Source of the DNA: Candidatus Eiseniibacteriota bacterium
Lineage (GTDB): Bacteria; Eisenbacteria; RBG-16-71-46
Direction of reading: 5' to 3'
DNA length: 64,000 bases
NCBI GenBank assembly: GCA_016178725.1
Contig: JACOSV010000016.1
Location: forward strand, 11,132-75,131
Position 1 is the first letter of the stretch, and each line of letters opens with the position of its first letter. Positions 4,922 to 64,000 of the stretch are shown here, piece by piece. Under the pieces are notes generated by a model that worked only from the letters and a program-made list of their open reading frames with translations, did not search any database and had not been told where the DNA came from. The translations under genes were made by a program, and so were the position numbers.

Positions 4922-4946
4922 CCGGGCCCCTTCGATCGGAGTCGGA

Positions 4947-6017
4947 ATGGTCACCTCGTCTGAATCCGCGGTCCCTCCCGGCCTGCCCAGCTTCTATGGC
5001 CTGACGCGGGCGGCGCTCGCCGCGCGCCTCGCCGAGCAGGGACTGCCCTCCTACCGGGCCGATCAGGTGTTCTCGTGGGTCTACCGGAAGCACCATCGCA
5101 CGCCCGAAGGGATGGCCAACCTCCCGGCCGTGCTGCGCGACCGGTTCGGGACGCTGTGCGCGCTCGAGCGGCCGGCGTTCGCCTCGACGCAGGCCTCGTC
5201 CGACGGCCAGACGCACAAGTTCGTCCTCACGCTCGCCGACGGCGCCCGGGTCGAGTGCGTCTCGATGCGCACCGAGCGCAGGCTCACGTTCTGCGTCTCG
5301 AGCCAGGTCGGGTGCGCGCTCGGCTGCACCTTCTGCGCCACCGGGCTCATGGGCCTCCAGCGCAACCTCGGCTCCGCTGAAATCGTCGCGCAGGTGATCG
5401 CGATGGGCGACTTCCACGCCTGGAAGGACGACCGCTTCAACATCGTCTTCATGGGCATGGGTGAGCCGCTCGCCAACTACGGGCCGATGATGGAAGCGAT
5501 CCGCATCCTGCACGATCCGCTCGGACTGAACCTCGGCGCGCGGCGCATCACGGTCTCGACCAGCGGCGTCGTGCCGCAGATCGCGCGGCTCGCGGACGAG
5601 GGTCTGCCGCTCGGCCTCGCGGTCTCGCTCCACGCGACGACCGATGAGCTGCGCGACCGGCTGGTGCCGATCAACAGGCGCTGGCCGATCGCGCCGTTGA
5701 TCGCCGCGGCGCGCGACTACGGACGGAAGAGCGGCCGGCGCGTGACGCTCGAGTACACGCTGCTCGCCGGCGTCAACGACCGCGACGAGGATGCGCTGCG
5801 CCTCGGGGCCCTCGCCCGCGACCTGCCGAGCAAGATCAACCTCATCGCCTACAATCCCGTCCCGGGCCTCGACTGGAAACGGCCGACGCGCGAGGCGGTG
5901 GACGCGTTCGCGAAGCGGCTATGGCCGATCGCGCCGGCCGTGACGGTGCGCCACACCATGGGAGGTGAGATCTGGGCGGCTTGCGGACAGCTCGGGGGCC
6001 TTTCGCCGGCGGCGTGA
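4947..6017 (+). CDS. rlmN: 23S rRNA/tRNA (adenine-C2)-methyltransferase RlmN, radical SAM
   Basis: Track ORF. Contains CVSSQVGCALGCTFCATG (CxxxCxxC) and GMGEPLANY, with typical RlmN length and layout. Confidence 0.93.
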   Translation: MVTSSESAVPPGLPSFYGLTRAALAARLAEQGLPSYRADQVFSWVYRKHHRTPEGMANLPAVLRDRFGTLCALERPAFASTQASSDGQTHKFVLTLADGARVECVSMRTERRLTFCVSSQVGCALGCTFCATGLMGLQRNLGSAEIVAQVIAMGDFHAWKDDRFNIVFMGMGEPLANYGPMMEAIRILHDPLGLNLGARRITVSTSGVVPQIARLADEGLPLGLAVSLHATTDELRDRLVPINRRWPIAPLIAAARDYGRKSGRRVTLEYTLLAGVNDRDEDALRLGALARDLPSKINLIAYNPVPGLDWKRPTREAVDAFAKRLWPIAPAVTVRHTMGGEIWAACGQLGGLSPAA

Positions 6018-53425: not shown

Positions 53426-53734
53426 CTAGTAGCTGAAACCCAGGAGACCCGGGTCGGGCATGAGATCCGGGCTCCACGGGTCGGGCATGATCTCGACCTC
53501 GCACTCCTGCGGCACGACGCTCATCGTCGCCTGCTTCACGTCTTCGATGAGCTGCGGCGCGTACGGGCAGAACGGCGTCGTCAGCATCATGCGGACGAGC
53601 GTCTTCGGCGGGTCGAGGAAGTGGATCTCGCGGATCAGCCCGAGGTCGATCACCGAGAGGTTGATCTCGGGATCCATGACCGTCTCGAGCGCCGCGCGGA
53701 TCGCGAGCTCCTGCTGCGTCGGCGCGTCGCTCAT
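53426..53734 (-). CDS. sufT: SUF-associated DUF59 protein (SufT-like Fe-S assembly factor)
   Basis: ATG at 53734 within track ORF 53426..53914. Contains VMDPEINLSVIDLGLI and MMLTTPFCPYAP. Confidence 0.8.
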   Translation of the reverse strand: MSDAPTQQELAIRAALETVMDPEINLSVIDLGLIREIHFLDPPKTLVRMMLTTPFCPYAPQLIEDVKQATMSVVPQECEVEIMPDPWSPDLMPDPGLLGFSY

Positions 53735-54057
53735 GACCAGGCCACCTGCACCGCATCGCCTTCGATCCGCACCGAGTAGATCGGCACGGGCGCGGTCGCG
53801 GGCATCGCCAGCACCACGCCGGTGCGCACGTCGAAGCGCGCCCCGTGGCGCGGGCATTCGATGACGTGATCCTCGAGCACGCCCTCGGCGAGCGGACCGC
53901 CGTCGTGCGTGCACACGTCGTCCATGGCGTAGTAGCGGCCGGCGACGTGGAAGATCGCGATCTCGCGGTCGTCGAGCCGCGCCACCTTGACGCCGCCGTC
54001 GGGGATCTCGCCCACCGTCGCCACCGTCACGAACCGCTGCGCCGCCGTCCCGGTCAT
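53731..54057 (-). CDS. Rieske [2Fe-2S] ferredoxin-like protein
   Basis: ATG at 54057. Contains CTHDGGPL...CPRHGARF. 108 aa. It overlaps both neighbours by 4 nt. Confidence 0.85.
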   Translation of the reverse strand: MTGTAAQRFVTVATVGEIPDGGVKVARLDDREIAIFHVAGRYYAMDDVCTHDGGPLAEGVLEDHVIECPRHGARFDVRTGVVLAMPATAPVPIYSVRIEGDAVQVAWS

Positions 54058-54473
54058 GCGTCCTCGTCCTCGCCCGGCCACTGCGTCATGCCGTAGGCGC
54101 CGGCCTTGAGCGTCTTGAGCGCCAGGAGCCCGCACTTGAGCCGCACCGGGCCGAGCTCGATGCCGAGCAGCTCGAGCATGTCGTCGCGCGAGATCTTCTT
54201 CGCCTCGTCGAGCGTCTTCCCCTCGATCGCCTCGCACAGCATCGAGGCCGCAGCCTGGCTGATCGAACACCCGGTGCCGGAGAAGCGCACCGCGTCGATC
54301 TTCCCGTCGCGCACGTTCAGGTCCATGCGGATGCGGTCGCCGCACAGCGGGTTCGTGTCCTCGTACGTGATGTACGGGCGTTCGAGCGTGCCGCGGTTCC
54401 GCGGGTGCTGGTAGTGGTCGAGGATGTGCTCGCGGTAGAGATCGTCCATCCCGCCGCCGGATGCCCCGCTCAT
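54054..54473 (-). CDS. sufU: SufU-type Fe-S cluster scaffold / sulfur-acceptor protein
   Basis: ATG at 54473. Contains LYREHILDHYQHPRNRG, NPLCGD, GTGCSIS and LKCGLLALKTL. Confidence 0.85.
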   Translation of the reverse strand: MSGASGGGMDDLYREHILDHYQHPRNRGTLERPYITYEDTNPLCGDRIRMDLNVRDGKIDAVRFSGTGCSISQAAASMLCEAIEGKTLDEAKKISRDDMLELLGIELGPVRLKCGLLALKTLKAGAYGMTQWPGEDEDA

Positions 54474-55720
54474 CGCGCGAACACCTTGCGCGCCCGGTGG
54501 AGCCCCGCGACCAGCGCGTCGACCTCCTCGGGCAGGCTGTAGCAGTGGAACGACGCGCGCGCGCTCGCCGGGACGCCGAGCGCCTCGTGCAGCGGCATCG
54601 CGCAGTGATGTCCCGCACGCACCGCGACGCCGTCGTCGTCGAGCACCGTCGCCACGTCGTGGGGATGGATGCCGTCGAGCGTGAAGGCGATCACGCCGCC
54701 GCGCTTGTCCTCCGACGGTCCGAGCAGCGTGAGGCCCGGCACCTCGCGCAGCCGCTCCATCGCGTACGCGACCAGCTCGCGGTCGTGCGCGAACACGCGC
54801 TCCATGCCGAGCGAGCGCAGGTAGTCCACGGCCGCGCCGAGCCCGATCGCCTCGGCGATCGGCATCGTACCGGCCTCGAACTTCCACGGCAGCTCGTTCC
54901 ACTTGGATCCGGTGAGCTTCACCTCGCGGATCATCTCGCCGCCGCCCATGAACGGCGGCATCGCCTCGAGCAGCTCGCGGCGCGCCCACAGGCCGCCGAT
55001 GCCGGTCGGGCCGAGCATCTTGTGGCCGGTGAAGGCGAAGAAGTCGCAGCCGAGCGCCTGCACGTCCACCGGGCAGTGCGGCACGCTCTGCGATGCGTCC
55101 ACCAGCATCCGCGCGCCCGCGGCGTGCGCCTGCCGCGCGATCTCGGCGATCGGGTTCACCGTGCCGAGCACGTTCGAGATGTGGACCGCGCCCACCAGCT
55201 TCACGCGGCCATCGGCGAGCAGCGTGGGCAGCGCCGCGAGGTCGAGCTCGCCCGAGCCCGTGATCGGGATGAAGCGCAGCTCGACATCGCGCTCGGCGGC
55301 GAGGATCTGCCAGGGCACCAGGTTCGCGTGGTGCTCCATCACCGTGAGCACGATCGCGTCGCCGGCCTCGAGCTGCGAGCGGCCCCACGCGTAGGCGACC
55401 AGATTGATCGCCGCGGTGCTGTTGCTCGTGAAGATCAGCTCGCGCGGCGAGCGGGCGCCGATGAAGTCGGCGAGCCGCCGGCGCGCGTCCTCGTACGCGG
55501 CCGTCGCCTCCTCCGCGATGCGATAGATGCCGCGGTGGATGTTGGCGTTGATCGTGCCGTAGTAGCGGTCCATCGCCTCGATCACCGCGTCGGGCTTCTG
55601 CGACGTCGCGGCGCTGTCGAGGTAGCGCAGCGGCTTCGCGCGCTCGGCGCGGAAGATCGGGAATTGCTCCCGGACCGCCCGCGCGTCGAGCGACGCCGTC
55701 GCCGTATCGGACGCCTTCAC
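54470..55720 (-). CDS. sufS: cysteine desulfurase SufS (class II aminotransferase V)
   Basis: Track ORF. Contains FTGHKMLGPTGIG (PLP Lys) and RAGHHCAMP (active-site Cys). Confidence 0.95.
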   Translation of the reverse strand: MKASDTATASLDARAVREQFPIFRAERAKPLRYLDSAATSQKPDAVIEAMDRYYGTINANIHRGIYRIAEEATAAYEDARRRLADFIGARSPRELIFTSNSTAAINLVAYAWGRSQLEAGDAIVLTVMEHHANLVPWQILAAERDVELRFIPITGSGELDLAALPTLLADGRVKLVGAVHISNVLGTVNPIAEIARQAHAAGARMLVDASQSVPHCPVDVQALGCDFFAFTGHKMLGPTGIGGLWARRELLEAMPPFMGGGEMIREVKLTGSKWNELPWKFEAGTMPIAEAIGLGAAVDYLRSLGMERVFAHDRELVAYAMERLREVPGLTLLGPSEDKRGGVIAFTLDGIHPHDVATVLDDDGVAVRAGHHCAMPLHEALGVPASARASFHCYSLPEEVDALVAGLHRARKVFAR

Positions 55721-55724
55721 GCCG

Positions 55725-57074
55725 CTATCCGATCTTCCGCTGGATGAGCTGCCGCAGCCCCTCGCGCACGCCGTCGAGCGGAATGCGATCCAGCACCGGC
55801 GCGAAGAATCCCTCGACGATCAGCCGCTGCGCGTCCGAGCGCGGCAGACCGCGCGCCATCAGGTAGTACATCTGCTCTTCGTCGACGCTGCCGATCGTCG
55901 CGCCGTGCGTGCAGCGCACGTCGTTGGCCAGGATCTCGAGGCCCGGGATGCTGTCGGCGCGCGCGGTGTCGGAGAGCAGCAGGTTGCGGTTGGCCTGGTA
56001 CGCGTCGGTGCGCTGCGCGCCCTCGGCGACCTGGATCAGCCCCTGATAGACGCTGCGGGCGTAATCCTTGAGGCAGCCCTTGATGAGCAGGTCGCTGGTG
56101 CAGTGATCGGCAAGATGGCGCTGCAGCGTGTGGAGATGGAACTGCTGCCGCGCGTCGCCGAACATGAATCCGTGGACGAACGCCTGCGCGCCCGGGCCGG
56201 CGAGGTTGAAATACGAATTGCTCTTCACGACGCGGCCGCCGAGCAGCGTCTGCACCCACTGCAGCTCGCCGCCGCGGGCCACCTGCGCGCGCTGGTTCGA
56301 GTAGTGGTAGACGCCATGCCCCCACTCCTCGAGCGTGCCGTAGATCAGCTTCGCGTCCTCGCCGACGAACGCCTCGGTGCCGCCGACGTAGAACGCCGGC
56401 CCCTCGACGTCCGCCGACACCAGCTCCTCGACGATCGTCGCGCGGCTGCCGCGGCCGAGCACGACGAGGTTGCGCGGCGCGACCAGCCGGCCGTCGCCCT
56501 CGATCCAGTGCAGCACGCGGATCGGCACGGCGGCGTCCACGCCGTCCGGCACCGAGACGAACAGGCCGCCCGAGCGGAGCGCGGCGCCGAGCGCAGTGAA
56601 CCAGTCGTAGTCGGGCTCGAGCAACGAGCCGAGCCGCTCGCGCACGAGATCGCCGTGCTCGGCGAGCGCCCGCTCCATCGAGCAGACGATCACGCCCTGC
56701 TTCGCGAGCTCGGCCGCCGGTTGCTCGATGACCACATCGCTGTCGCGCTGGACGAGCAGCGCGGCCTGGCCGCGCTCCGCGCCGAGACGCTCGAGCAGCG
56801 CCGCGGGCAGATCGTCGAGGCCGCGTGTCGCCGGCGCCGGGCGGAACGGGTCGAGCGACGGCAGCGCGGACTCGATGCCGCGGAGATCGATGCGGCGCCA
56901 CAGCTCGTCGGCGCGCGACGGCGGCGCGAGCGTGCGGGCGATGCCGACGGCGGCGCGGCGCTGGTCGAGGGACCACGCCGGCTCGCGGCGCTGCGTCGCC
57001 CGCTCGAGTGCCGTGCGCTCCCAGGCGCCGACGTCGACCGGGGCGGACGCGGGTGCCGTGCGGGTCGTCGTCAT
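55725..57074 (-). CDS. sufD: Fe-S cluster assembly protein SufD
   Basis: The ATG at 57074 overlaps the sufB stop by 4 nt. Contains the C-terminal SufBD beta-helix block IPGLEILANDVRCTHGATIG..DEEQMYYLMARGL. Confidence 0.9.
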   Translation of the reverse strand: MTTTRTAPASAPVDVGAWERTALERATQRREPAWSLDQRRAAVGIARTLAPPSRADELWRRIDLRGIESALPSLDPFRPAPATRGLDDLPAALLERLGAERGQAALLVQRDSDVVIEQPAAELAKQGVIVCSMERALAEHGDLVRERLGSLLEPDYDWFTALGAALRSGGLFVSVPDGVDAAVPIRVLHWIEGDGRLVAPRNLVVLGRGSRATIVEELVSADVEGPAFYVGGTEAFVGEDAKLIYGTLEEWGHGVYHYSNQRAQVARGGELQWVQTLLGGRVVKSNSYFNLAGPGAQAFVHGFMFGDARQQFHLHTLQRHLADHCTSDLLIKGCLKDYARSVYQGLIQVAEGAQRTDAYQANRNLLLSDTARADSIPGLEILANDVRCTHGATIGSVDEEQMYYLMARGLPRSDAQRLIVEGFFAPVLDRIPLDGVREGLRQLIQRKIG

Positions 57075-59563
57075 CCGACCGAGCCCTCCATCTGGAGCTG
57101 GATCAGCCGGTTCATCTCGACCGCGTATTCCATCGGCAGCTCCTTCACGATCGGCTCGATGAAGCCCGAGACGATCATCCCCGCCGCCTCGTCCTTGCCG
57201 ATACCGCGGCTCTGGAGGTAGAAGAGCTGCTCGTCGCCGATCTTCGACACCGTCGCCTCGTGCCCGATCGTGACCTTGTCCTCTTCGATCTCCATGTACG
57301 GGTACGTGTCGGACCGCGATGCCTCGTCGAGGATCAGCGCGTCGCAGTTCACGTTGCTGCGGCAGTCCACGGCGCCCTTCTGCACCTTGACGAGCCCGCG
57401 GTAGCCGGCGCGCCCGCCGTCCTTGCTGATCGACTTCGACACGATCTTGCTGGTCGTGTTCGGCGCGCAGTGGATGACCTTGCCGCCCGCGTCCTGATGC
57501 TGGCCCTTGCCGGCGAACGCGATCGACAGGATCTCGCCGTGCGCCCCCGGCTCCATCATGTACACGCTCGGGTATTTCTGGGTGATCTTCGAACCCAGAT
57601 TCCAGTCGACCCACTCCATCGTCGCGTCGCGATACGCGAGCGCGCGCTTGGTGACGAGGTTGTAGACGTTGTTCGACCAGTTCTGGATCGTGGTATAGCG
57701 GCAGCGTGCGTTGGCCTTGACGATGATCTCGACCACCGCCGAGTGCAGCGAGTCGCTCGAGTAGGTCGGTGCGGTACAGTTGTGGACCGCGAAGCCACCT
57801 GCGACATACGCGTTGGGCGATGACTCGAGCTCGAAGTTGAACACGGGCCCGTCGAATGGATTGCGGTCGATCCGATTGATCGGAACCAGGAAGTAGTCCT
57901 CGCACTTCCGTACCTGGCTCTGCTGTTTGTCGTGCGAGAAGTAGAGGATGTACTGGTCGCGGCGCTTCATTGCGCGGCCCTGGATCGTATCGGGGCCACC
58001 CTTGCGGACGTTGATCGTGGCGAAGTGCCCCTGTCGCGCGATCAGCTCCTGGAGCTGCCACGCGAGCGTCCGGGACACGGTGCATGCGCGTGCCATCGTG
58101 TGCTTGCGCTTGCGATAGACGCTGCCATCGCCCTTGAGGTAGGTCTCGAGCAGCTGGGCCTGAAGATCCGCCGGCAGCTCCATGATCTCGCGGCTCAAGC
58201 GCTTCTCCGCGGCGCCCTGGCCGCAGTGGGCGATGCACAGATCGCGCAGGTGCTGCGAGTAGACCACCAGGTTCACCGCGTGGCGGCTCGGCTGCGCCAC
58301 TTCGATGGCGCGCTTGCCGGTCACCGCGTGGATCAGCGCCTTCACCTCGTCGATGGATTCGCGCTCGCGTTCGGAGAACGTCAGCGTCACCACCGGCTGG
58401 TGGAGCCTCTTGTGGATGTAGGTCGAGCCTTCGGCCAGGTAGTACCCGAGCAGCCGAACGACGTCGCGTGTCAGCGCCTCGTTCTCGCGGGTGATCCGGC
58501 TGACCGGGAAGACGAGGAAGTCACCGGCCTCGAGCTGGCCGGCGGGCACGAACTCGGGCTCCGCCGCTCGGAGGCGCACGCTGCTCACCTCGGGCTTCCA
58601 ATTCCCGCGCGGGGCGCGTCTCGCCGCCACATCACGGCGCCGCACCGTGAGCACGGGGTGTTCCGGCGTGAGCCTGAACACGTTGGCCGATGAGAGCGGA
58701 ACGATCGTGAGCATGTCGCCCTTGTAGGGCAGAACGCGCGTGCTCGCCACGCGCGACTCGCGGCCGTTGGAATCCATGACCACATCGCCGCGGTCGACGG
58801 TCTCGATGTTGACCCAGGTGTGACCGAGACTGACCTGCTCTCCCGCGGGCAGGCACCCCTCCACATAATGCACGTAGGCGCCCTCGTCGACGATGATGAG
58901 CGTGCGCTCGAACTGGCCCATGTCCTTGGTGTTGATCCGGAAGTAGGCCTGCAGCGGCACATCCACGTGCACGCCCTTCGGCACGTAGATGAACGAGCCG
59001 CCGGACCACACCGCCGAGTTGAGCGCCGCGAACTTGTTGTCCGCCGACGGAATCACGGTGCCGAAGTACTGCTTGAACAGCTCCTCGTGCTCCTTCAAGC
59101 CGTGGTCGCACGACAGGAACAGCACGCCCTGTTTCTCGAGCTTCTCCTGGATCTTGTGGTACACGACCTCGGAGTCGTACTGGGCGCCGACGCCGGCGAG
59201 GAACTTCTGCTCGGCCTCGGGAATGCCGAGCTTGTCGAACGTGCGCTTCATGTCGGCCGGGACGTCCTCCCAGGTCTTCGATTCCTCGGACGTCGGCTTC
59301 ACGTAGTAGTAGATGTTCTGGAAGTCGATCGTCGAGAGATCCGGGCCCCAGGTCGGCATCGGCTTCTTCTCGAAGATCTCGAGCGCCTTGAGGCGGTACT
59401 CGCGCATCCACTGCGGCTCGCCCTTCATGTCCGAGATCTGGGCGACGATCTCGCGATCGAGCCCGCGTCGGCTCTTGAAGACGTGCTGCTCCTCGTCGTG
59501 GAAGCCGTACTTCTCGGTGTAGCTCTCGCGGAGATCGAGCGTGGGTGTCTCGGGCTTGCTCAT
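57071..59563 (-). CDS. sufB: Fe-S cluster assembly protein SufB, interrupted by an intein (830-aa precursor; exteins total 471 aa)
   Basis: Track ORF. The N-extein ends ...[14 protein letters not shown]. The C-extein starts [18 protein letters not shown].... Together they form a normal-length SufB. Confidence 0.95.
57779..58855 (-). mobile_element. SufB intein (359 aa) with LAGLIDADG homing-endonuclease domain
   Basis: Starts CLPAGEQV (Cys1). Block B is LTPEHPVL (TxxH). The two dodecapeptide motifs are [10 protein letters not shown] and [11 protein letters not shown]. It ends GFAVHN followed by Cys+1. A hand count of 57841-57960 gives about 57% GC, well below the flanking sufB sequence. Confidence 0.88.
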
Positions 59564-60363
59564 CGTGCCACCGCTTCCTTTCCGTTGCGCACCCAGTCGT
59601 AGCCGCGGCTCTCGAGCTGGAGCGCGAGCTCCGGACCGCCGGAGATCTGGATGCGTCCGTCCACCATGACGTGGACCTTGTGCGGCTTGATGTAGTTGAG
59701 GATCCGCTGGTAGTGCGTGATCACGAGCACGCCCATGCCCGGGCCGGCGAGCGCGTTGACGCCGTCCGAGACGATGCGCAGCGCGTCGATGTCGAGGCCG
59801 GAATCGGTCTCGTCCATGATCGCGATCTCGGGCTTGAGCACGGCCATCTGGAGGATCTCGGCGCGCTTCTTCTCGCCGCCCGAGAACCCGTCGTTGAGAT
59901 AGCGGCCGGCGAACGACTCGTCCATCTTGAGCAGCGCCATCTTCTCCTTGAGCAGCGCGCGGAACTCCTTGGGCGCGATGCCGCGCTTCTTCGGCACCGC
60001 TCCGCTCCCGTCGTTCTCGGACGGCGCGAGCCGCGCGTTGAGCGCGGTGCGCAGGAAGTTCGCCACCGAGAGGCCGGGGATCGCCACCGGATACTGGAAC
60101 GCCATGAACAGACCGGCGCGCGAACGCTCGTCGGCCTCCATCTCGAGAAGGCTCTCGCCCTTGAACAGGATCTCGCCCGAGGTCACTTCGTACTTCGGGT
60201 GCCCCATCAGCGTGTTCGCGAGCGTGCTCTTGCCGGAGCCGTTCGGCCCCATCAGGGCGTGGATCTCGCCCCGCTTCACCTCGAGGTTCAGGCCCTTGAG
60301 GATCTCCTTGCCCTCGATCCCGACGTGCAGATCCTTGATCACCAGCTCAGGCGTCGCGCTCAT
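59560..60363 (-). CDS. sufC: Fe-S cluster assembly ATPase SufC
   Basis: ATG at 60363. Contains Walker [10 protein letters not shown], the ABC signature FSGGEKKR and Walker [13 protein letters not shown]. Confidence 0.95.
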
Positions 60364-60371
60364 GTCGTCCC

Positions 60372-60743
60372 CTAGACCGAGAAGCTCTCGCCGCACGCGC
60401 ATGCGTGGCGGACGTTCGGATTGTTGAACTTGAACCCCGTGCCCATCAGGCCTTCGACGTAGTCCACCTCGGTGCCGCCGAGCAGCATCGCGCTGCGCGC
60501 GTCCACGACGAGGCGCACGTCGTTCGAATCGATCACCAGATCGCCGGGCGACTCCGCGTCGCAGAACTCCATGAAGTAGGAGTTGCCGGAGCAGCCGCCG
60601 CCGCGCACGCCGACGCGGAGCCCGGTCCCGGGCGTGCCGCGGCCCGCGAGCAGCTCCCTCACCTTCGTCGCCGCGACCGGCGTGAGCGTGATCGTCGGCG
60701 CCGGCGTTCCCGTGCCTCCGACCGTGTTCACTGTGACCGTCAT
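60372..60743 (-). CDS. sufA: A-type Fe-S carrier (IscA/SufA/ErpA family)
   Basis: ATG at 60743. Contains [13 protein letters not shown] and a C-terminal CACGESF. Confidence 0.85.
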
Positions 60744-61315
60744 GCCTCTATTCCTCCGGTGGGTGTCTTGTCGAGCTCTTCGAGTCGAACGAATGGTCCG
60801 CGCGCGCCGCGCCGGCCGCGCTCGGGCGTCGCGGTGATGCCGGCGACCAGCGCCGGCTCGCCCGCCATGCCGTGATCCTGACCGCAGCGCGCGCACGCCT
60901 TGACCGGCGCCTCGGGCGTCGCGCACGCGCGGCACGTCTCGAGGTAGGCGAGCCCCTGCTCGAGCTCGCCTTCGAGCCGGCGGAAACGATCGAGCGCCGC
61001 GCGCGTCTCGGCGAGCTTCTTCTCGAACAGCGCGCGCAGGCGTTCCATCGCTTCGGGCCCGAGATCGGCGCTCCACCACGAGCGCAAGAGCTCGCTCATC
61101 TCGTGCAGCGAGAAGCCGGCGCCGTGCAGCAGATCGATCCAACGCACGCGCTCGACCGCGCTCGCGCCGTAGAGCCGGAAGCCGCCGCTCGAGCGCGTCG
61201 CGGGCTGGAGCAGACCCAGCTCTTCGTAGAGATGGATCGCGCGGACCGTCTTCCCGGTCAGCCGGGCAAGATCGCCGACGCGAAGCAGTTGACTGGTTTC
61301 GACCGCCGATGACAC
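60740..61315 (-). CDS. MerR-family transcriptional regulator with C-terminal CxxC-x9-CxxC cluster
   Basis: Track ORF. The GTG start is preceded by GGAGG. The HTH is [26 protein letters not shown], followed by a coiled-coil and then [21 protein letters not shown]. The stop overlaps the sufA start (ATGA). Confidence 0.8.
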
Positions 61316-61325
61316 CGTGCCTCCA

Positions 61326-61343
61326 AACCCTTACGTAAGCGTT
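61326..61343. promoter_or_regulatory. near-perfect 18-bp palindrome (core CTTACGTAAG) in the suf leader: candidate operator
   Basis: AACCCTTACGTAAGCGTT is self-complementary at 16 of 18 positions, and the 10-bp core is perfect. It lies between the predicted -10 and the GGAGG of the MerR-like gene. Confidence 0.4.
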
Positions 61344-61356
61344 AGATTCGAACTGG

Positions 61357-61385
61357 AACCTACAGCACCTACCGGAGTTCGTCAA
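61357..61385 (-). promoter_or_regulatory. candidate sigma-70-type promoter of the MerR-suf operon (TTGACG-N17-TAGGTT)
   Basis: On the minus strand, TTGACG (61385-61380) is followed after 17 nt by TAGGTT (61362-61357). These are the same hexamers as the eno promoter candidate. Confidence 0.4.
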
Positions 61386-61448: not shown

Positions 61449-62933
61449 TCAGGCCGCGGCGGCGGCGACTGCGGCGGGGCGGCGCGACAGCGCGAGGTAG
61501 AGTCCGCCAGCGGCGAAGAAGCCGACGAACCACGCGTAGTCGTAGAGCGGCCGGAGCGGCGGGAAAACGAGCCCGCCCCAGGCGAGCGCGCAGCCGGCGA
61601 GCGTCGCGACGACGGCCGGCAGGTTCCAGCCGCGGTAGATGCCGTCCGGCAGGTAGAGATCGGCGAGGCGCAGGTTGCGCCCGCGCACGATCCAGTAGTC
61701 GGCGATCAGCACGCCTGCGATCGAGCCGAGGCCGCCCGAGTACCCGACGAGCCACGCGAAGATGTAGCCGCTCGGATCGGCGAGCAGCCGCCACGGCTGC
61801 ATCAGGATGCCGATGATCCCGGTGATCAGGCCGCCGGTCTTGAAGCTGATCCATCGCGGCAGCGCGTTGGCGAAATCGTTCGCCGGCGAGACCACGTTCG
61901 CCGCGATGTTCACGGCGAGCGTCGCCACCACCACCGAGAACATCGCGAAGCCGACCACCAGCGGCTGGTGGAAGTTGCCGACCAGCTTGACCGGATCCCA
62001 GATCGGCCGGCCGAAGATGATGGCGCTCGCGCTCGTGATCAGCACGCCCATCGCCGCGAATGCGAACATCGTCGTCGGCAGCGCCACCGTCTGGCCGACG
62101 ATCTGCTCGCGCTGGCTGCGGCCGAATCGGGTGAAGTCGGGCATGTTGAGCGACAGCGTCGCCCAGAAGCCGATCATCCCGGTGAGCGACGGCACGAACA
62201 CCGGCAGGAACTTGGCGAGCGTGTCGAACTTGCCGGGCTGCGAGAGCAGCGGTCCGAATCCGTGCGCGGCCTTCACCGCCCACACGAGCAGCCCGAGCGT
62301 CACGATCAGGACGTACGGCGCGGCCCAGTTCTCGACCTTCCGCAGCAGATCCATGCCGCGGTAGATGATCCAGATGTTGAGCCCCCAGAAGAGCATGAAC
62401 GAGAGCCACTCGGTGCCGGCGTGCCCGGCGAAGCCCGCGCCGAGCACCGTCGGCCAGCCCGGGATCAGCGCCGCGAAGAACGTGTGCAGCGCCTCGCCGC
62501 CGATCCAGGTCTGGATGCCGAACCATCCGCACGCGACCAGCGCGCGCATCAGCGCCGGCAGGTTCGAGCCCGCCGTGCCGTACGCGGCGCGCGCGAACAC
62601 CGGGAACGGGATGCCGTACTTGGTCCCCGGGTGCGAGTTGAGCAGGATCGGCACCAGCACGATCATGTTGCCGAGCAGGATCGTGAACAGCGCCTGCTTC
62701 CAGCTCATGCCCGCGGCCATCAGCCCCGAGGCGAGCATGTACGTCGGGATGCAGTGCGCCATGCTGATCCACAGCGCGGCGTAGTTGTAGGTGGTCCAGT
62801 TGCGGCGCGCGACCGGGACCGGCGCAAGGTCGTGGTTGTAGAGCGGGCTCTGGTCGATGCGCGCGACGGCCAGCAGCTCGACGCGGCCGTCCGCGAGCTG
62901 GACCTGATTCGGATCGGATGCTGCGACGCTCAC
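61449..62933 (-). CDS. NCS1 family nucleobase/hydantoin/allantoin-type permease
   Basis: The GTG at 62933 overlaps the upstream stop (GTGA). It is the C-terminal part of track ORF 61449..63152. Contains NHDLAPVP...RNWTTYNYAALWISMAHCIPTY and GIPFPVFARAAYG, with 12 TM helices. Confidence 0.85.
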   Translation of the reverse strand: MSVAASDPNQVQLADGRVELLAVARIDQSPLYNHDLAPVPVARRNWTTYNYAALWISMAHCIPTYMLASGLMAAGMSWKQALFTILLGNMIVLVPILLNSHPGTKYGIPFPVFARAAYGTAGSNLPALMRALVACGWFGIQTWIGGEALHTFFAALIPGWPTVLGAGFAGHAGTEWLSFMLFWGLNIWIIYRGMDLLRKVENWAAPYVLIVTLGLLVWAVKAAHGFGPLLSQPGKFDTLAKFLPVFVPSLTGMIGFWATLSLNMPDFTRFGRSQREQIVGQTVALPTTMFAFAAMGVLITSASAIIFGRPIWDPVKLVGNFHQPLVVGFAMFSVVVATLAVNIAANVVSPANDFANALPRWISFKTGGLITGIIGILMQPWRLLADPSGYIFAWLVGYSGGLGSIAGVLIADYWIVRGRNLRLADLYLPDGIYRGWNLPAVVATLAGCALAWGGLVFPPLRPLYDYAWFVGFFAAGGLYLALSRRPAAVAAAAA

Positions 62934-63145
62934 GCGTTCGGTTTCCGGGCGCTGAAGAACAACGCCGTGCCGACCAAGATCGCGAAGCCCGAGACGAGCG
63001 GCGGCAGATTCCAATGCTTCTGCTCCGTGACCTTCATCTTGAAGTCGCCGATCTGGGCAACGTTCTCGGTGTGCTTGTAGGGAATGCCGCCGAACGCCAG
63101 GCCGATGAGGCCGATCAGCACGAGCACGACGCCCAGGATCCGCAT
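62930..63145 (-). CDS. small two-TM membrane protein (DUF3185-like, tentative)
   Basis: Track ORF, 71 aa, with N- and C-terminal hydrophobic helices. It is sandwiched in-operon between preA and the permease. Confidence 0.5.
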   Translation of the reverse strand: MRILGVVLVLIGLIGLAFGGIPYKHTENVAQIGDFKMKVTEQKHWNLPPLVSGFAILVGTALFFSARKPNA

Positions 63146-63148
63146 CGC

Positions 63149-64000
63149 TCACACCCTCCGCGTCTGGAGCTTCCGGAAGTCGGCGAGACCGCCGGGCACC
63201 TTGTTCGTGCCGCGGGCGATCCGGTCATTCCACGATTCGAACGGCGCGCCGTTCGTCTCGTCAACAATCGTGATGCAGTCCGGCACCGGGCACACCGACG
63301 CGCACAGGTTGCAGCCGATGCACTCGCTCTCGTCCACCCAGACGACGTGCGCGTCCTTCGCCCGCCCCGTGACCGATTTGGAGCGGTGCGCCGCCTCCGC
63401 GATCGCCGCGGTGCGCGTGGACGCCGCGTGCCCGGGTGCGAGCGCGTCGCCGGCGTTGTGGATGCAGTGCACCGCCGTGTCGCGGCAGGCGACGTAGCAG
63501 AGATTGCAGCCGATGCATTTCTCGGGGTCCACGTGCGCGACGACCTTGTAGTGGAGGTCCAGATCGCCCCACTCGGTGAACGCCGGGATCGCGCGTCCCT
63601 CGAGCTCGCGCACGCTCGTCATGCCCTTCCCGTCGAGATACGCCGAGAGCCCGTCGATCATGTCCTCGACGATGCGGAAGCCGTAGTGCATCGCCGCCGT
63701 GCACACCTGCACGCTGGTCGCGCCGAGGGCGATGAACTCCGCCGCGTCGCGCCACGTCGCGATGCCGCCGATGCCGGAGATCGGGACCGTGATGCGCGGA
63801 TCGCGCGCGAGTGCCGCGACCATGTGGAGCGCGATCGGCTTGACCGCCGGACCGCAGTAGCCGCCGTTGGTCGAGCGCCCGCCGACCACCGGGTACGGCA
63901 CGAACTTGTCGAGGTCCACGCCGATCAGGCTCTTGATCGTGTTGATCAGCGAGAGCCCCTTCGCTCCCGCCTCGACCGCGGGCACGCCGGCCTCGAGGAT
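63149..64000 (-). CDS. preA: NAD-dependent dihydropyrimidine dehydrogenase subunit PreA-like (DHOD-fold + 2x 4Fe-4S ferredoxin), N-terminus beyond the right window edge
   Basis: The reading frame stays open to nt 64000. Contains GGYCGPAVKPIAL and SGIGGI, and two CIGCNLC..C(P) clusters near the C-terminus. Confidence 0.85.
   Translation of the reverse strand: MLEAGVPAVEAGAKGLSLINTIKSLIGVDLDKFVPYPVVGGRSTNGGYCGPAVKPIALHMVAALARDPRITVPISGIGGIATWRDAAEFIALGATSVQVCTAAMHYGFRIVEDMIDGLSAYLDGKGMTSVRELEGRAIPAFTEWGDLDLHYKVVAHVDPEKCIGCNLCYVACRDTAVHCIHNAGDALAPGHAASTRTAAIAEAAHRSKSVTGRAKDAHVVWVDESECIGCNLCASVCPVPDCITIVDETNGAPFESWNDRIARGTNKVPGGLADFRKLQTRRV

Follow-up and report, generated by a model that had tools for sequence, protein, structure and literature searches.

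A four-cysteine MerR-family protein heads the suf operon in Eisenbacteria and is very probably its dedicated regulator

We examined a 64 000-nucleotide stretch of DNA from an uncultured soil bacterium recorded as Candidatus Eiseniibacteriota (assembly GCA_016178725.1, contig JACOSV010000016.1, positions 11 132 to 75 131; hereafter the window), in which an operon for assembling iron-sulfur (Fe-S) clusters begins with a gene for a MerR-family protein, here called the regulator. Close homologues of this protein bear the name Candidatus Eisenbacteria. The operon runs regulator-sufA-C-B-D-S-U-Rieske-sufT, all on the minus strand (Table 1); downstream of the regulator lies sufA, and upstream a 567-residue membrane-permease-like open reading frame (ORF; 61449-63152). 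No gene for metal efflux or detoxification adjoins the regulator among the ORFs of the window. The GTG start of the regulator, at 61315, is preceded by an in-frame TAA within the leader. A preliminary description made from this DNA had proposed that a MerR-type protein, rather than IscR, SufR, Fur or OxyR, heads the operon, and that its stop codon overlaps the start of sufA. Both proposals hold: the first through Pfam domains and the gene order of the 24 + 17 related loci described below, the second through an ATGA read directly from the sequence (60743-60740). Of the Fe-S systems, SUF alone is complete in the genome (assembly of 3.07 Mb, 89% complete), which also has one further cysteine desulfurase and one further A-type carrier. 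IscU and HscB were not found in the genome, and the Rrf2 family (PF02082), to which IscR belongs, had no match anywhere in it.

The Pfam families MerR_1, MerR and MerR-DNA-bind together cover residues 12-120 of the regulator. Its N-terminal part is a MerR-type winged helix-turn-helix (HTH), with PF13411 (4e-12) and PF00376 (1.1e-10) both over their cut-offs, and PF09278 spans residues 54-120, the long dimerisation helix that follows the HTH. The C-terminal part holds the four-cysteine cluster that the preliminary description had pointed out, C128-R-A-C131-x9-C141-A-R-C144, preceded by LAYLET and followed by GQDHG and, farther on, by EPALVAGI. An AlphaFold2 (AF2) model built from an alignment of 81 sequences (mean predicted local distance difference test score, pLDDT, 85) has the winged HTH, a helix 86-129 that ends at C128 (pLDDT >90), a short helix 138-142 bearing C141, a helix 155-161 corresponding to a PxLVxG motif, and a disordered tail. 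The significant Foldseek matches of this model were all MerR-family proteins (NmlR, CueR, CadR, SoxR, BmrR). A profile search against the PDB matched the regulator over residues 12-121 only, and the C-terminal 104 residues had no PDB relative. Because the modelled helix ends at C128, the PDB profiles stop at 121 and the C-terminus has no relative there, the four-cysteine (Cys4) module takes the position in the fold where MerR-family proteins carry their ligand loop, yet it is new as a sequence motif. The placement is thus like that of SoxR, with a different cysteine spacing, as had been proposed; the cluster begins within the final turn of that helix.

None of the NCBIfam equivalogs reaches its cut-off on the regulator. 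The bit scores against cut-offs are 56.5/147.4 for CueR, 51.4/168 for ZntR, 48.5/150.9 for MerR and 45.4/151.5 for CadR, and 33.5/116.9 for SoxR (TIGR01950); membership of the CueR, ZntR, MerR or SoxR groups was rejected, with every score under its cut-off. The Rrf2 domain PF02082 had no Pfam match on the regulator. In public annotation these proteins are called copper efflux regulators (Joint Genome Institute, JGI) or Zn-responsive regulators.

Table 1. Features of the regulator gene, its leader and the suf operon (positions in the window)
Feature	Position	Strand	Basis
-35 element TTGACG	61380..61385	-	sequence; TTGAC at one fixed position when orthologous leaders are aligned without gaps
-10 element TAGGTT (lineage consensus TAnnTTCC), 17-nt spacer	61357..61362	-	phylogenetic footprinting
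22-bp predicted operator AATCTAACG-CTTA-CGTAAGGGT, 9-4-9 inverted repeat	61327..61348	-	conservation, position weight matrix
Shine-Dalgarno GGAGG	61320..61324	-	sequence; 4 nt 5' of GTG start
Cys4 MerR-family regulator, 191 aa, GTG start	60740..61315	-	ORF, Pfam MerR domains, AF2 MerR fold
Winged HTH DNA-binding domain, residues 12-79	61079..61282	-	PF13411
Cys4 site C128-x2-C131-x9-C141-x2-C144, end of dimerisation helix 86-129	60884..60934	-	alignment and AF2
ATGA overlap, regulator stop TGA (60742-60740) / sufA ATG (60743-60741)	60740..60743	-	sequence
sufA (A-type Fe-S carrier)	60372..60743	-	PF01521, TIGR00049
sufC	59560..60402	-	ABC_tran match, synteny
sufB with LAGLIDADG intein	57071..59563	-	SUFBD_core in two stretches and LAGLIDADG_3
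sufD	55725..57074	-	ORF, tblastn synteny
sufS (cysteine desulfurase)	54470..55720	-	ORF, synteny
Putative sufU, Rieske-type and sufT/DUF59-like operon tail	53426..54473	-	ORFs; names not Pfam-checked

Orthologues of the regulator with 49-77% identity are found in two families, f1 and f2, of its order (41 related genomes); a third family of the same order, f3, is without one. The order merR-sufA-sufC-sufB-sufD-sufS was kept in all 24 of the orthologous loci that were fetched, down to 49% identity, and 17 named Eisenbacteria loci taken from a species-genome collection showed the same suf order wherever downstream sequence was present. The gene, the four cysteines and the synteny are kept at 41/41 Eisenbacteria loci examined (24 + 17). 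Loci from the genome collection were chosen by an HTH peptide pattern and are thus unselected for cysteines; the proteins of all 80 loci from that scan have the Cys4 motif. The 81-sequence alignment shows no change at C128, C131, C141 or C144, and conservation of at least 90% at P154, L156, V157 and G159.

The family reaches well beyond this order. A HMMER search of 1.84 billion representative proteins (E < 1e-10) matched 698 clusters, and among the best 150 of these, 110 had the pattern C-x2-3-C-x5-14-C-x2-C with PxLVxG about 10 residues on, the rest being mostly fragments. What defines this subfamily is a set of invariant CxxC-x8-12-CxxC cysteines where the dimerisation helix ends, with the PxLVxG helix after them. 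About 60 loci belong to Myxococcota (Polyangiaceae, Nannocystaceae, Sandaracinaceae, Bradymonadia and cultured strains), with 41-54% identity to the regulator; here its relative heads iscS-iscU-iscA-hscB-hscA-fdx, a gene order established by Pfam for Labilithrix luteola and by tblastn for the others. Cultured carriers include L. luteola DSM 27648, Nannocystis exedens DSM 71, Nannocystis punicea, Chondromyces apiculatus DSM 436 and Plesiocystis pacifica SIR-1. Translational coupling between the regulator and sufA or iscS is seen in many loci. Farther members head sufBCDSU, or an iscS-sized gene, or (in another family of the same class) iscS-iscA, and a few very distant ones adjoin genes for Fe-S proteins. 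The preliminary description had suggested examining whether homologues are linked to suf genes elsewhere and whether the cysteines are conserved. In Eisenbacteria and Myxococcota suf or isc genes lie 3' of the regulator at every homologue locus with downstream sequence, and the cysteines are conserved as just described. With suf synteny in Eisenbacteria, isc synteny in Myxococcota and the arrangements of the distant members, the linkage to Fe-S assembly genes spans two phyla and two machineries. A distant Cys4 paralogue with 33% identity (L038, G038:C10) is divergent from a gene for a NuoG-like Fe-S/molybdopterin oxidoreductase and is not beside suf or isc.

The leader of the operon is conserved as well. 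Leaders were anchored on the conserved GTRAGGGT, and those of the 24 relatives and 17 named loci align without gaps as TTGACnAAcT-N13-TAnnTTCC-N7-AATCTAAC-N4-nCGTRAGGGT. The promoter TTGACG-N17-TAGGTT of the preliminary description (61385-61357) is at the place given for it, in a layout that is gapless throughout the 24 + 17 loci. Downstream of it lies a 22-bp site, a 9-4-9 inverted repeat, which begins 8 nt past the -10 element and would span roughly +2 to +24 of the transcript. It is conserved in 42 Eisenbacteria leaders and in 49/59 Myxococcota leaders. The inverted repeat common to both phyla has the Myxococcota consensus ACyCTnACG-N4-CGTAAGrGT; in the Eisenbacteria version, AATCTAACG-N4-CGTAAGGGT, the left half is degenerate yet highly conserved; the half-sites of the window's own copy carry CTAAC and CGTAAGGG. 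All 42 Eisenbacteria leaders have 17 nt between -35 and -10, and the distance from promoter to operator is fixed in them too. In Myxococcota the operator may touch the -10, overlap with it, or follow it at a distance of a few bases. A 19-20-nt spacer with an operator inside it was seen in none of the orthologous leaders, and the predicted layout is that of a repressor blocking RNA polymerase, not of classical MerR activation.

The preliminary description had pointed to an 18-bp palindrome nearby, at 61326-61343. That string, AACCCTTACGTAAGCGTT, is present and 8 of its 9 pairs are complementary, but its symmetry is not conserved: in this register a perfect 10-bp core occurs at only 3/42 Eisenbacteria and 1/49 Myxococcota sites. 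We rejected it as the operator because its register is not conserved; the conserved dyad is centred 4 nt upstream on the coding strand (61348-61327), and the palindrome exists only because the spacer in the window happens to be CTTA. For the 9-4-9 register, 78% of cells in the alignment are complementary, versus 22-46% with the partner slid by 1-3 columns. Covariation across the dyad amounts to one double change, under the level of shuffled controls. Since the true register is complementary without covarying, the dyad is the signature of two predicted sequence-specific protein half-sites rather than of an RNA stem. An RNA hairpin or riboswitch in the leader was considered and rejected, with no Rfam match and no covariation in the dyad.

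A position weight matrix (PWM) scan of the 3.07-Mb genome scored the operator at 43.9 bits and the next unrelated site at 8.5 bits, which puts the element well outside what chance would give, and neither regular expressions nor the PWM found a further copy in the genome. The suggestion that the motif might recur upstream of other Fe-S or oxidative-stress genes was thus not borne out: the same two methods gave a single occurrence. Because the site is unique in the assembly, the predicted regulon is, as far as the assembly shows, the operon itself.

We built a maximum-likelihood tree of the regulator family and rooted it at the midpoint. All SUF-linked Eisenbacteria proteins form one clade (support 100/94), nested in the ISC-linked Myxococcota radiation beside Nannocystaceae (91/88, moderate). 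Because the SUF clade lies inside the ISC-linked radiation, regulator and operator seem to have passed between Fe-S machineries as a unit; a transfer of this module out of an isc operon into a suf operon would account for the tree. For three MAG records the tree and the record label disagree: the regulator of L045 (Candidatus Limnocylindria, Chloroflexota) groups with the Eisenbacteria clade, within it, and those of L064 (Pseudomonadota) and L114 (Phycisphaerae) fall inside Myxococcota clades. These conflicts are probably binning or labelling errors.

Family f3, which lacks the regulator, has an Rrf2 gene immediately 5' of sufB in five of five genomes compared by coordinates (L125 at G033:C66:257-874, and G026, G028, G031 and G032), and its suf order begins with sufB rather than sufA. 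The Rrf2 protein of L125 has 205 amino acids and an IscR-like three-cysteine segment, and is followed by sufB-sufC. At the Rrf2 loci L121-L124 the flanks are too short to show neighbours, and the adjacency was settled by comparing coordinates and by the reading of L125. This is a clean case of non-orthologous displacement, by or of Rrf2, at one regulatory position.

We consider it very probable that the Cys4 MerR protein is a dedicated regulator of the suf operon that acts through the 22-bp site, and that it probably takes the role of IscR or SufR at these operons. A fuller model, towards which we incline a little, makes it an autorepressor of Fe-S biogenesis that senses Fe-S through its Cys4 site and represses in the holo form. 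A dimer would bind the 22-bp site and block RNA polymerase, so that its own gene and sufACBDSU-Rieske-sufT would be repressed. The Cys4 site would bear an Fe-S cluster built by the SUF machinery itself, and the cluster-loaded form would be the repressor. Under cluster shortage, whether from iron limitation, oxidative damage or high demand, the apo form would build up and the operon would be derepressed. This would be the feedback logic of holo-IscR, SufR and RisR on a different fold; that Fe-S occupancy of the Cys4 site would set repression is drawn from analogy with these proteins, and also from the exclusive association of the family with Fe-S assembly genes. The link between regulator and operon is well supported; what the site holds (Fe-S, Fe or Zn) we only infer.

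Several points weigh against the fuller model. A pair of CxxC knuckles is the arrangement classically seen in Zn ribbons or rubredoxins and would fit zinc or mononuclear iron equally well, and we know of no Fe-S regulator with this cysteine spacing. The direction of the switch, with the holo form repressing, is taken purely by analogy. The left half-site in Eisenbacteria is degenerate, with 6/9 positions complementary. The promoter is missed by a strict scan for the sigma-70 consensus, because its -10, TAGGTT, agrees with TATAAT at only 3/6 positions; with so weak a -10, the predicted promoter and the +2 to +24 position of the operator are read from conservation only. Finally, at L038 (~4940-4985 of the locus) the half-site CGTAAGGGT lies within that gene's own -35/-10 spacer (TTGACAttcaCGTAAGGGTtgttCATAAT), and for this reason the members of the family may not all act in the same way.

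The alternative that survives best, although we hold it unlikely, is a thiol or zinc redox switch. Here the four cysteines would hold structural Zn(II) or remain free thiols, oxidants would form disulfides and release the repressor, and suf would answer oxidative stress, by a chemistry resembling that of RsrA or Hsp33 placed on a MerR scaffold. CxxC-x9-CxxC is a typical Zn-knuckle pattern, no residue besides the four cysteines is invariant around the site, the SUF system is classically stress-induced, and the geometry of the operator would suit any repressor. A stress switch of this kind sits less well with the same family heading housekeeping isc operons at some 60 Myxococcota loci, or with a three-cysteine Rrf2 protein replacing the regulator in the sister family f3. 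Moreover, the characterised regulators that occupy this position (IscR, SufR and RisR; PMC9973013) all sense through an Fe-S cluster.

Improbable, in our estimate, is a classical MerR switch, in which the protein would stay bound at the promoter in both states and activate by untwisting DNA, as SoxR, CueR and MerR do. The MerR fold and the MerR-like size of the 22-bp dyad agree with it, as does the L038 site, which overlaps the -35 and the spacer. Against it stand the spacer of 17 rather than 19-20 nt in 42/42 Eisenbacteria leaders and the position of the operator, downstream of or overlapping the -10 and not inside the spacer.

We would give similarly little credence to a Cys4 site that is only structural, with the signal arriving through a protein partner, for example a SUF or ISC scaffold or carrier, docking on the PxLVxG helix, rather as TnrA and GlnR, also of the MerR family, are controlled by glutamine synthetase. 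The strong conservation of this helix past the cysteine site and the translational coupling to sufA or iscS in many loci speak for it; such a partner must, however, be common to the SUF and ISC systems, and PxLVxG may be no more than alpha-6, which in other MerR proteins forms a cap over the ligand site.

A heavy-metal sensor (Cu, Zn, Cd or Hg) of the CueR/ZntR/MerR kind that stands by chance beside suf is very improbable and close to refuted already, for although CueR, ZntR and MerR are the best NCBIfam matches and the JGI name agrees, those matches are far under their cut-offs (56.5 against 147.4 bits for CueR), no efflux gene adjoins, the linkage to suf or isc extends across two phyla wherever downstream sequence is present, and the genome's only operator sits at suf.

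Some further features of the operon and its surroundings deserve mention. A terminator-like hairpin with a T-run lies at 61571-61588 on the minus strand, in the 3' part of the permease-like ORF and about 120 nt before its stop. The LAGLIDADG intein of sufB is sporadic: it was found in 3/24 related suf loci (G002, G005 and G024; L013, L017 and L027), and in the other related loci the two sufB extein halves are contiguous. An IscU-like match comes after sufS in related loci. In one single-contig genome of 4.16 Mb (L028, G020:C1:554512-565027) sufA, sufC and sufB each appear as several tblastn pieces in different frames, which suggests indel errors of a long-read assembly and not real pseudogenes.

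Control of Fe-S supply is known in detail for few types of protein, IscR and RisR of the Rrf2 family and SufR, with Fur and OxyR acting indirectly. We found no published description of a MerR-type regulator of suf or isc, nor of this large family, in open-access papers and preprints, a search that could miss an account in a subscription journal. We take the proteins described here for a new subfamily of MerR with a novel predicted sensor module; their probable role has until now been known from Rrf2 and SufR proteins only. Whether, after the Rrf2 type and SufR, the Cys4 MerR family supplies a third structural class of dedicated regulators that sense Fe-S clusters and govern their biogenesis, with the twin-CxxC loop ligating a cluster in a new type of coordination, and with regulator and 22-bp operator as a portable module that passed between ISC (Myxococcota) and SUF (Eisenbacteria) operons and displaced Rrf2 regulators, we regard as finely balanced. 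If it does, feedback by a cluster-loaded repressor would have arisen on a third protein scaffold, the few known Fe-S sensor sites would gain a Cys4 ligand motif of a new kind, and SoxR would gain a second Fe-S member of the MerR family beside it, one that represses from a downstream operator. The analysis also corrects the public annotation of these proteins as copper-efflux or Zn-responsive regulators. The family is open to experiment, being present in cultured myxobacteria with finished or draft genomes and having one well-defined predicted operator.

Among known systems, CueR, ZntR, CadR and MerR are the best matches in sequence and structure (residues 12-121) and carry their ligand loop at the end of the same helix. 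The regulator misses their equivalog cut-offs by about 90 bits or more, differs in cysteine pattern, operator position and spacer, and lacks an efflux neighbour. SoxR is, to our knowledge, the only MerR protein with an Fe-S cluster ([2Fe-2S]). It shares with the regulator the winged HTH, the antiparallel coiled coil, and four cysteines contributed by one subunit from the C-terminal end of the dimerisation helix. The cysteine motifs differ, CX2CXCX5C in SoxR and CX2C-X9-CX2C in the regulator, and BLASTP against an approximate Escherichia coli SoxR query aligned the HTH only, with no residue-level match at the cysteine sites. Furthermore, SoxR activates from inside a 19-bp spacer, whereas the regulator has a 17-nt spacer and a predicted operator past the -10, and SoxR targets soxS or efflux genes, whereas the predicted target of the regulator is an Fe-S assembly operon.

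SufR, an ArsR/DeoR-type [4Fe-4S] repressor of cyanobacteria and actinobacteria, resembles the regulator in being dedicated and encoded beside suf, and would share the expected holo-repressor logic. Its DNA-binding fold and cysteine spacing are unlike those of the regulator, and its gene usually either opens sufBCDS or points away from it, whereas that of the regulator is coupled in translation to sufA. RisR is an Rrf2-family Fe-S regulator of isc/suf (PMC9973013). Like IscR and RisR, the regulator has its gene in first place in an Fe-S assembly operon with a presumed autoregulatory site in the leader; within one order it stands where an Rrf2 gene heads suf, and in the isc operons of Myxococcota it occupies the IscR position. 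IscR and RisR, however, have the Rrf2 winged helix, three cysteines plus His, Asp or Glu, and another operator, whereas the regulator brings a MerR fold and four cysteines to the same place.

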